A stretch of 63,965 nt of DNA, filler included, from an uncultured Methanosarcinales archaeon (lineage in GTDB: Archaea > Nanobdellota > Nanobdellia > Woesearchaeales > CAZXZL01): NCBI GenBank assembly GCA_964645415.1. It is 3 parts of 3 records of this genome, joined end to end, with 100 filler letters (N's around TTAATTAATTAA, not from the genome) between each part and the next. Parts side by side here need not be neighbours in the genome. Positions count along the whole stretch, not along the records: positions 1 to 22,683 come from CAZXZL010000012.1; 2 more parts are not named here. One strand, 5' to 3'. Within the stretch, counting starts at the first letter, position 1. Each line of letters starts with the position of its first letter. Of the stretch, positions 12,001-15,000 are shown piece by piece. The position numbers were made by a program.

Positions 12001-15000
12001 GTCATTTAATTGATATAACTGATTTTAGTAATCCACAGATACAACATATGTACATTTATTATAATCACTTTAAAGAAAGATGGATTGAAAAGATATTAAA
12101 AGGAGAGAAATCAGAAGATATGAATGAAGATGAAGTAAATGATGCTTCTTTAAATGCAGTAAAAAGAAGAATAATGAGTGCACTTGAAATTTCTATGAAG
12201 AATGGAAAAATTAGATCACATTCTGTTTTTAAAAAAGATGGTTCAAAAAGAGTAATGAAAAAGATAATAAATTCTTTAAAAGAAAAACATGTTGTTATAG
12301 ATACTTCTAGGTTGTCAGATAATATTGAAAAAATGTTAAGTATGATGATAGCAAGAGAAGTATTTAAAGAAAGAAAAAGAAATGAAAATAGAAATAGAAC
12401 AATATCTATGATAATAGAGGAAGCACCAAGAGTTTTAAAAGAAGATAATAATATTTTTTCTACAATTGCAAGAGAAGGAAGAAAGTTTAATGTTGGGCTT
12501 GTTGCGATAACCCAAATGCCAAGCTTAATTCCAAAACAAGTTCTTGCAAATCTAAATACAAAAATAATTATGGGTACAGAGATGAGTTCTGAAAGGAATG
12601 CTTTAATTGATTCATCAGCTCAAGATTTAACTGAATTTTCTGATGCAATTTCTTCATTAAATATTGGAGAAGCACTAATTACTACAACTTTTACTAACTT
12701 TGCAGTTCCTATAAAAACAGATTTATTTGAAAAGGAATTAAAAAAATATTGGAAGCAAAAGAAAGAAGATAATACAAAACTAAAATTAGATGTTTAAATT
12801 TTTAGTTAAATTATAATTAAACTAATATAAAATGTCAGATATTAAAAAATTAAAATCAGAGTTACATGAAAAATTAGAAGAGATAATATTTAAAGATATT
12901 AAAAAGTTGTATCCTGTTCAAAAAAAATCAATTAGTCATATTAATTCTAAGGATAATTTAATTGTGTGTGCTCCAACAGCCGGTGGAAAAACTTTAGTTG
13001 CAGAATTAATTTTAGTTAATAATATATTAAAAACTGGAACAAAGGCAGTTTATATTGTTCCTTTAAAAGCTCTTGCTAGTGAGAAATATAAATACTTTTC
13101 AGAAAAATATCCTTTTTTGAATGTTGGTGTTAGTTCAGGTGATTATGATTCAAATGATTATTACCTAAAGGAGATGGATATTATAATTGTGACTTCTGAA
13201 AAATTTGATTCATTATTGAGAAAAAAGGTAGATTGGATTGATAATTTAGGTGTTGTAATTGTTGATGAAATTCATTTAATGAATGAAAAAAATAGAGGTC
13301 CTACATTAGAGATTGTTATAACTCATATATTAAGGGAAGATATTAGGATAGTTGGATTATCTGCAACAATAGGAAATCCTAAAGAGTTAAGTGAATGGTT
13401 AAATGCAAAATTAATTTATGATGAATGGAGACCAGTTAAATTAAAACAAGGAGTATATAAAGATAATAAAATAATTTTTAAAGAATGAGTTTAATTAAAT
13501 TATAATAGGTGATTTGATGAAAAAAAATAATGATGTAACAAAATTTATTGAAGAAAAATTTAATGATGTTATAAAACGAATAGATGATGTAGATAAAAAA
13601 GTAGACAAAATAAAAAATGATATTGAAAAGAAAAATAAAAAAGATAATGTGAAAAAGAAACATAAATTAATTAGTGAATGGAGAAAAAACATACAAGATG
13701 ATTGTAAAGAAAAAGTAGAAGTTTCATTAGAAGAGGAAGCAGAGTATTTCTGTGGTTTGACTGAAAATGAAATTTGTAATATAATTAATTGTCCAAAAAA
13801 CATTGTTAAAAAAGATGAAAATCAAAAAATTTAAGATAAAAAATAGAAAAACACCTAATGATTTAGATTATCTTTTTACAAAAGTACAAGCATGTAAAGA
13901 TGATATTGTGTTAGAAGTTAGACTTCTTAAAAAACTAATTGATGAATTAAAAAAAAGAGAAATCTCAATAAGTGAAACATCTGTTGTTTCATATTTGGAA
14001 GAAAGATTTACTTTTATTAATAAAAATGCAGAAAAAGTAGATTTTAATTACATAAATGAGAATTTATTAACTAAGATTAAATTAAAAGAGAAAGAAATTG
14101 ATGAAAGTAATAAAAGTGAAGAAAGTAATTATGATGAAGAAAATAATAAAAACCTTGAAAATAAGAATGATAATAAAAGTAGTATCTTTGAAGATGATTA
14201 TTTTAATAAATAATTAATTAATTAATTAATTTATTCATCTTCTTTAAACTTATAGATATAACCTTTTTTCTCAATCCTTTTATATTCTACGGCATCCCTT
14301 TGACGTAGTTTCTTTAAATTATTACTAATTGATCCTTGAGATAATTTTAGGTACTCATTTATCTCTCTTGCTGTGAACCATTCATCAGGATGCTCTTTTA
14401 AGAAATTATATATATCTTGTTGGCTCATTTTATGTTATTTATAAATAAAGTATAGTATATTACTTTTATTGTTGTCGAATATATATATTTTAGACTATGT
14501 TTTTATTCTATTGAGGGGAAGTTATCTGTTTTTTATAGAAGAACACTTTATAATTTTTTAATTATCTTATTTGATATTCAATATTAAAAGTTTAATAAAT
14601 TATTTGATTTTGATTTTAATAGTTTATTTTTTGATGTTTTTTTATAATAATGAAAGATATTATTTTTTTATGATCTTTATTAAGATTTTATGTTTCTAAA
14701 ATATTTTTTTATTTTATCATTTCTAAAATAATTAAAATTATTTTTATCTATTAAAGATATTATTTTATCTTTATGTGAGGATAGACCTTTCCAGTCTAAT
14801 ATGAAATTTTTTGAATATTTTGAAAGATCTTTTATCATTTTTTCATCAATATGTTTTAATGCATATTTTGGAATAATAATTGGAATTGAGATTGGTGTTT
14901 CAATAGATATTTTAGTAAATTCACGAGCATAATGTGAACCTCCTATTCCAATACCATAATACTTTGGTAAGTTTATATTTTTTAAAGTATTAAATATTGA

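Follow-up and report, generated by a model that had tools for sequence, protein, structure and literature searches.

The DNA analysed here, referred to as the window, is a stretch of 63,965 nucleotides in which contigs C12, C13 and C18 of a genome of the Woesearchaeales (assembly of 961 kb, in 79 contigs) are joined by N's. It encodes the N-terminal part of the DNA helicase Hel308 as a gene of its own, and the partner gene lies outside the window, on contig C14. The features of relevance are the following.

12832..13488, + strand: Hel308-N gene, 218 aa, with RecA1 (domain 1), the inter-lobe linker and the first two RecA2 strands (ATG to TGA open frame; Pfam, NCBIfam and Hjm alignment)
12919..12993, + strand: Q-motif glutamine (Q30) to Walker A (P48-T54); Q30, P48, T49, G52 and K53 invariant among 66 aligned N halves, Walker A pattern in 68 of 68
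13264..13275, + strand: Walker B / DExH box (D145-H148), invariant in the N-half alignment, 68 of 68
13360..13368, + strand: motif III (S177-A178-T179), invariant in the N-half alignment, 68 of 68
13429..13437, + strand: inter-lobe linker R200-P201-V202, retained by the N protein and invariant in the N-half alignment; the start of Hjm domain 2 (residue 198) aligns to W199
13438..13485, + strand: first two RecA2 beta-strands (K203-E218), putative donor strands for the sheet of the partner (models of an intact protein and of the C half; position of the stop)
11319..12797, + strand: HerA-like ATPase gene, 34 bp upstream of Hel308-N (DUF87 and HerA models)
3543..5477, + strand: intact Mtr4/Ski2-like helicase, 644 aa, with DSHCT domain, a paralogue separate from Hel308 (Pfam, tblastn)
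C14:4354-5868, + strand, outside the window: partner gene Hel308-C, 504 aa (Helicase_C, HTH_61, Helicase_dom4_arc)

Hel308 genes of the studied genome

The survey's finding that Hel308 is encoded here by two whole, separate genes on different contigs was borne out by the open frames, the profile matches and the contig-internal positions of both. Hel308-N matches the Pfam DEAD model at residues 27-185, positions 10-213 of 704 in the NCBIfam Hel308 profile, and residues 19-211 of Pyrococcus furiosus Hjm (E 5e-58); Hel308-C matches positions 231-696 of the same profile and Hjm residues 220-676 (E 1e-89). The architecture RecA1-RecA2-winged helix-ratchet-domain 5 is complete when the two genes are combined, the single polypeptide of about 700 aa that is typical of Hel308/Hjm being represented by 218 plus 504 aa, and the NCBIfam cut-offs are reached by neither half (e.g., 202 and 307 bits versus 1200). 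The neighbours of the two genes are unrelated: HerA upstream and two open frames without Pfam matches downstream of Hel308-N, an ABC ATPase and a DUF5698 gene around Hel308-C.

As to orthology, the split proteins group with intact Hel308 of sister orders, and the DSHCT helicase is a separate gene. The long frames matched in the earlier searches had been attributed to a separate Mtr4-like helicase, and this is indeed the nature of the 644-aa paralogue in the window, which is intact and was rejected as a candidate for the missing half. In a tblastn search of the whole assembly no further Hel308-level copy was detected, only this helicase and a weak SF2 match on C39. The extension that precedes the Ski2 core in ASH-Ski2 is absent from the N halves, which measure 208-258 aa and start with RecA1. 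An operon of HerA and Hel308-N was considered as a conserved feature and rejected, since HerA adjoins the N half only in the studied genome; tblastn with the HerA-like neighbour over all collected loci retrieved this locus and one distant match of 26% in G096. A sigma-70 promoter scan, with a model that does not cover archaeal promoters, produced 7 matches versus 8.1 expected, i.e., chance level.

Distribution, position and origin of the split

The short N gene, originally noticed in 14 of 15 relatives, can now be followed through 142 of 151 genomes of the order and then through 58 further genomes, all with short frames. Among the matches listed, 145 of the 151 genomes matched the N protein, 142 of them at Hel308 level (E 5e-42 or better) and always in frames of 197-350 aa, the other three matching the paralogue only. 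A second draw yielded 110 same-order matches with frame lengths of 153-350 aa throughout; new genomes contributed 58 of these, and no fused Hel308 frame was present in the 200 order genomes with an N match from the two draws. The C protein was matched in 144 of 151 genomes, again among the matches listed. Both halves are thus recognized in 137 genomes, one only in 12, and neither in 2, tallies that take in G105 and G123 (two halves each), which are part of no alignment or tree. Profile searches of 9 of the 14 genomes without both halves left most orphans as they were, with contig-end scraps recovered in G035 and G080; G100 (C half only) and G091 (N half only), both rated 100% complete, were still orphan after these searches. 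Six C frames exceed 600 aa: four contain inteins in motif V or VI, one is a methyltransferase fusion, and the sixth (G052) has a separate N half. Among the best 80 of 580 named records, 47 of which are titled Ca. Woesearchaeota, 72 are split, 5 are intact, and 3 are cut by gaps or ends.

The sister orders served as a control. In a search of the class, 63 genomes of other orders matched the N half, 52 of them in a frame of at least 687 aa. Of the remaining 11 matches, eight are at contig ends (four judged from extracted loci and four from coordinates), one has internal stops, and two represent a split at a second site. No match to the N half was obtained in 61 of 141 class genomes, and a Hel308-type family model found no Hel308-level match in five other-order genomes searched with it (best E 5e-23), so Hel308 was not found in part of the class.

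The split had been described as falling at the boundary of RecA1 and RecA2, and this needs correction, as the break comes about 20 residues later, inside RecA2. Domain 2 of Hjm starts at residue 198 (PMC2636818, in excerpt), and the N-half stop is found 17-30 residues from the linker arginine in 68 of 68 copies, at 18-19 residues in 46 of these. In the model of an intact Hel308 from a sister order (pLDDT 91, pTM 0.86; TM 0.88 and rmsd 2.5-3.3 A to Hel308 crystals), strands E198-205 and E208-210 correspond to the stretch at the N-half end, and in the C-half model no strand is seen ahead of helix 18-28, the C halves beginning with the helix that follows the RecA2 hairpin. With the cut past both linker and hairpin, the N piece holds the hinge and the first two RecA2 strands, and its tail is probably placed to complete the RecA2 sheet of the partner. 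When modelled alone, the C half keeps its domains and loses their arrangement (pTM 0.62, rmsd 5.9-6.7 A to Hel308 crystals), as expected if RecA1 is needed for closure of the ring.

With regard to the origin of the split, a tree of RecA1 only did not resolve, with the long branch of the studied genome falling among intact proteins, and both halves were therefore used, the careful tree on both halves together comprising 48 of 102 rows. In this tree, 27 split copies and three intact proteins group at 93/95 support. The intact proteins that fall among split copies in free trees are L276, G234 and L282, of which G234 belongs to another order. A split-only clade appears in 0% of 200 bootstrap trees and is not rejected by the AU test (p 0.285). 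The simplest reading is of one fission, with these three proteins as intact sisters, re-fusion or more than one origin being further possibilities, and the fission is placed at or near the base of the Woesearchaeales. A second cut site is presented by G236 and G261, of other orders, in both of which a TAA at one and the same codon past motif VI closes RecA1-RecA2, the remainder being a separate ATG-led gene, in G236 25 kb away and on the other strand. The N piece of G236 retains the upstream neighbour of the intact relatives, and the C piece of G261 their downstream neighbour. As G261 pairs with an intact gene as its sister in the tree (100/100), and as a clade of G236 and G261 was rejected (p 6e-85; AU test, 19 rows), this second cut arose twice, or relatives re-fused.

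A RadA-like motif in the winged-helix domain

An insertion in the wing of the winged-helix domain is present in 58 of 66 split C halves, in none of 35 intact proteins and in neither of the two second-site splits. The studied genome is one of the eight without it, although residues 187-193 of its C half resemble the motif; G086 also has no wing insertion, but a similar motif is found there at the N-terminus of the C half. The consensus of the 57 insertions parsed is D-F-V-S-A-D-E-L (pattern F-x-S-A-D/E-E/D-L), and that of the RadA polymerisation motif of the same order is G-F-E-S-G-E-D-L (23 of 36 RadA loci parsed). Alanine at +3 is found in 52 of the 57, against a background of 10%; F270 is invariant and A273 at least 90% conserved in 47 rows. 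The order's own RadA has F-x-S-G at this place (95%), versus alanine in the helicase loop (91%). A profile built from RadA only has its best match in the insertion in 45 of 58 cases; in the 45 other rows the best match never falls in the wing. Shuffled sequences were beaten at p 0.05 by 43 of the 58 insertions and not by the other 15, with scores that are modest, at a median of 7.7 bits versus 20 for RadA itself.

The C-half model displays a conserved F-x-x-A in an exposed loop that leads into a short helix, the same core and setting as in the RAD51/RadA polymerisation motif, BRC repeats, Rad52, Rad54 and Rad57 (excerpts of PMC7837696 and PMC4856416), with the difference that it sits in the wing of an archaeal helicase. 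Mimicry of this kind is how auxiliary factors bind Rad51 (PMC7837696, in excerpt). A complex of the G019 RadA core with the winged-helix domain was modelled with RadA's own motif removed, leaving the pocket empty, and scored 0.72, compared to 0.00 for the best of three controls; the mark for this score was passed by 116 of the 157 solved pairs, as against 2 of the 215 mismatched ones, and is only roughly valid for the alignments used. Three runs agreed in at least 86% of the contacts, with a partner pLDDT of at least 73. The wing motif is modelled against a RadA strand and pockets in the manner of the known mimics, its best-defined contacts being F270 and A273 on strand 168-170: modelled F270 touches RadA residues 136, 170, 181, 184, 185 and 188, and A273 touches 144, 146, 149, 164, 167 and 169, so that the model has Phe and Ala occupying the pockets of the recombinase. 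The pass may come from likeness to the solved RAD51-BRC and RadA-FxxA structures. With this in mind, docking of the wing loop on RadA appears probable for most members. A 2026 review describes contact between Hel308 and RadA as suggested, with clear data lacking (PMC13623763, in excerpt).

The same loop could bind the N half as a strap, in compensation for the covalent link that was lost, or be neutral; in either case its likeness to RadA would be due to chance. Its restriction to split copies (58 of 66 versus 0 of 37) agrees with such a role, as does the position of the winged helix near domain 1 in Hel308, where domains 1, 3 and 4 form a tunnel (PMC2636818, in excerpt). We nevertheless hold a strap or a chance likeness to be unlikely, since the RadA motif is matched at positions 0, +2, +4, +5 and +6, the insertion docks on RadA in all three model runs, and eight split copies do without a strap, with the motif of G086 located elsewhere. 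It seems rather likely that the insertion mimics the RadA polymerisation motif and would thereby dock the helicase on RadA.

A probable Hel308 motor in two chains

From these data the following mechanism can be proposed. The unlinked genes would give a protein of about 220 aa, carrying RecA1 with motifs Q, I, Ia, II and III, the linker and the first RecA2 hairpin, and one of about 520 aa, carrying RecA2 motifs IV-VI, winged helix, ratchet and domain 5, often with a PCNA-box-like tail. As judged from the motifs, the two very probably re-form a non-covalent heterodimer that acts like Hel308, a 3'-5' ssDNA translocase and annealase, with the N protein binding ATP and the C protein contributing the motif VI arginines. 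The N tail would probably complete the RecA2 sheet, keeping the hinge in one chain and the lobes tethered. Docking on RadA may recruit the helicase to recombination intermediates, or it may cap or disrupt filaments. Taken as a whole, this explanation, of fission, heterodimer, strand complementation and a RadA-docking loop, is the best we can offer, at a probability of roughly 80%.

The motor itself is well kept. All 68 N halves have Walker A, DExH and SAT. Of the 66 C halves, 65 have motif IVa and 63 match the motif VI pattern, the three misses in motif VI being one interruption by an intein, one mild variant, and one copy (G076) without the arginines; apart from this degenerate case, SF2 motifs Q, I, Ia, II (DExH), III, IV, IVa, V and VI are intact across the two halves. 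Owing to variation in its first glycine, a strict HhH pattern was found in no more than 22 of 66 C halves. Where dS is unsaturated, in 8 of 24 half-pairs (four N and four C values, from 12 pairs), dN/dS is 0.03-0.13, and the distances of N and C halves correlate (Mantel r 0.75, compared to 0.77 for intact proteins). Both halves are under purifying selection, and such values, along with the kept motor motifs, speak for neither decay nor an assembly break. The distance between the halves, a matter of doubt for as long as only fragmented bins were considered, has also been settled by genomes in single contigs, five of five of which possess two halves, 37 kb (G015), 332 kb (G023), 170 kb (G081), 423 kb (G092) and 10.5 kb (G146) apart, and by the chromosome of GW2011_AR15 (CP010425.1), where they are about 142 kb apart and on opposite strands. 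Nine draft genomes with both halves on one contig have them 3 to about 307 kb apart. The gene fission proposed as old and selected has accordingly held up, being order-wide, with the same cut, intact motifs, low dN/dS and no linkage in closed chromosomes: the fission of Hel308 across an order is real, old and selected.

The gene surroundings show no conservation, no neighbour family being present at more than 8 of about 66 C loci or 5 of 68 N loci. Neither adjacent halves nor shared conserved neighbours exist among the loci compared, so no coupling of their expression is visible. This lack of linkage, with shifting neighbours, would fit halves that act separately or with no more than brief contact, the C protein as an ATP-independent DNA binder or annealase and adaptor for RadA and PCNA, and the N protein in the service of another partner. 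Annealing does map to domains 4 and 5 of Hel308 (PMC13623763, in excerpt), 12 of 151 genomes have one half only, and G076 is devoid of the motif VI arginines. We consider separate action improbable all the same, as motifs IV-VI of the C protein and Walker A/B of the N protein act only across lobes, and nearly all copies retain them, as they do the RecA2 strands in the N tail; the one-half genomes would be about what draft incompleteness leads one to expect, and all five single-contig genomes have both halves.

Covalent re-joining of the pieces by a split intein or by RNA trans-splicing, which would return the enzyme to a single chain, finds some encouragement in the cis inteins of motifs V and VI in four C halves and in the split tRNAs known in the same phylum. 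It is highly improbable, given a stop directly after the hairpin in 68 of 68 N halves, a start codon opening 65 of 68 C pieces, and no pairing of the N 3' end with the C 5' region (z averaging -0.33 in 63 genomes, two of them below -3, and +0.6 in the studied genome). A split intein in particular was rejected: neither half in the studied genome has an intein Pfam match, and no intein ends are found at the cut, a tripeptide resembling such an end occurring within the first 30 residues in just 1 of 68. An artefact of assembly or binning, or a decaying pseudogene, as 79 contigs, halves on different ones and a named record (L262) with an N gap at the junction might suggest, has a negligible probability and is refuted by the single-contig genomes, the same cut recurring in 200 genomes, both halves sharing a contig, 3-423 kb apart, in 14 genomes and GW2011_AR15, and dN/dS being far below 1 with motifs intact.

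Among known systems, the closest are the archaeal Hel308/Hjm proteins (P. furiosus 2zj2/2zj8, A. fulgidus 2p6r, S. solfataricus 2va8), the top PDB matches by both sequence and fold, with the same five domains, order and motifs, and with the PCNA-box-like C-terminal tail of PfuHjm (PMC2636818, in excerpt) in 43 of 65 C halves. The two-gene Hel308 differs from the intact ones in being encoded by unlinked genes, with the cut about 20 residues past the start of domain 2, and from the 35 intact proteins compared in the FxxA-type wing insertion of most C halves. Another parallel is offered by the split proteins of Nanoarchaeum equitans and Nst1 (reverse gyrase, Lhr, GatE, TopoI and others; PMC3655853, Table 1) and by the split Dph1/2 of several DPANN groups (PMC6349945, in excerpt). 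The nanoarchaeal cases come from the same phylum, include SF2-containing proteins and are assumed to assemble in trans; as in them, whole unlinked genes and a common cut site are seen here in several genomes. Hel308 is not in the lists available from PMC3655853 and PMC6349945, and the novelty claimed for a natural split SF2 helicase has to be narrowed: a split Hel308 was not found in print, but split Lhr and reverse gyrase are on record for N. equitans and Nst1 (PMC3655853, Table 1). Unlike the nanoarchaeal splits, that of Hel308 spans an order with genomes of 0.6-2.7 Mb, not only the most reduced ones. It separates Walker A/B from motifs IV-VI; the cut in reverse gyrase leaves both RecA lobes together.

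The supplementary tables of a 2024 survey (PMC10946056), previously a caveat, contain no Woesearchaeota rows by keyword, the only matches being GW2011_AR10 and Nanohaloarchaea SG9, both in the Hel308 sheet. A split Hel308 is not mentioned in the portions available of PMC10946056, PMC8301817, PMC3655853, PMC2636818, PMC7837696, PMC4856416, PMC13623763, PMC6349945, PMC8407392 and bioRxiv 10.64898/2026.05.13.725050. Searches on Woesearchaeota Hel308, on FxxA with RadA and Hel308, and on heterodimeric split RecA-like helicases, in a scope that took in few subscription journals, returned nothing relevant. Neither the two-gene Hel308 nor the RadA-like wing motif was thus found in print, which does not prove absence. 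The N half of GW2011_AR15 (AJF61900.1) is annotated as a hypothetical protein or a DEAD/DEAH helicase. Such annotation may explain why these Hel308s escape notice, and the fixed cut is a candidate order-level marker.

As to what the finding means, this is a natural SF2 motor split between Walker A/B and the arginine finger and kept order-wide, in which each lobe could be separately mutated, labelled or swapped for the study of inter-lobe coupling, and the two natural cut sites indicate where Hel308 tolerates a break. This is of relevance to an enzyme that is a standard single-molecule nanopore motor (PMC6412116, in excerpt). The wing motif would provide a precise handle on the suggested Hel308-RadA contact. 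In eukaryotes, RECQL5 and BRCA2 motifs target recombinase filaments by mimicry. The boldest reading, for which the odds are about even, is of a two-chain SF2 motor across an order, its ATP site built in trans by strand complementation, with a BRC-like FxxA loop gained after fission that, with alanine in place of RadA's glycine, may out-compete RadA self-association, so that the helicase would target or cap RadA filaments by mimicry and the motor would be switchable by the supply of the small ATPase chain, in a class in which fission of Hel308 is tolerated at two sites and has happened more than once. More generally, gene fission in this phylum extends beyond the smallest genomes.

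Split after motif VI, and intact proteins

Hel308 is also split directly after motif VI in G236 and G261, two non-sister genomes of other orders of the class, at the same codon in both, a second, independent split:

L085:2957-4111 (-) and L109:1495-2556 (+), the two parts of Hel308 in G236
L064:213-1352 (-) and L108:604-1635 (+), the two parts of Hel308 in G261

The intact Hel308 proteins of the loci L276, L282 and L100 (genome G234) branch together with split copies, and the C half of L276 is present in the record L319 as well. The intact proteins may be either ancestral sisters or re-fusions.

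Gene neighbours, insertions and degenerate copies

The genes adjoining the N half are as follows:

window 10325-12797, TYW1-like radical SAM and HerA genes, upstream of the N gene and in the same orientation as it
window 13514-14213, two ORFs of 106 and 136 aa following the N gene, without Pfam matches

Neither ORF has a counterpart in the other loci compared. Inteins occupy Hel308 at motif V in L089, L090 and L092 and at motif VI in L091 and L266, with LAGLIDADG domains confirmed by Pfam in those of L089 and L091. The C half of G053 (762 aa; L093:990-3275 (+)) carries a Methyltransf_30 domain fused at its end, that of G076 (L160:1505-3121 (-)) has lost the motif VI arginines, and Hel308 of G222 (L107) contains two internal stops.

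Other SF2 helicases

An intact Mtr4/Ski2-like helicase with a DSHCT domain is encoded at window 3543-5477, and many of the order's genomes contain similar frames of 638-660 aa. In a 2024 survey (PMC10946056) the Ski2/Mtr4 group is reported to be exclusively eukaryal within the sample analysed. Small single-contig genomes of other orders (L112, L113, L114, L115) lack a Hel308-level match and have SF2 frames of 387-606 aa. The usual Lhr is longer than this, and these frames are possibly split Lhr pieces.

FxxA-like motifs outside the wing

The C half of the genome under study lacks the wing insertion, yet has an FxxA-like stretch in the linker between RecA2 and the winged helix, a site occupied by G-x-P in nearly all relatives:

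L001:4912-4932, FxxA-like stretch, residues 187-193 of the C half

In G086 such a stretch is found at the N-terminus of the C half. The RadA polymerisation motif of the order has Gly, not Ala, at its fourth place in 22 of the 23 parsed (L283-L317 and G000:C34:4671-5582). The FxxA-like stretches of these two C halves may represent a relocated motif, or chance.
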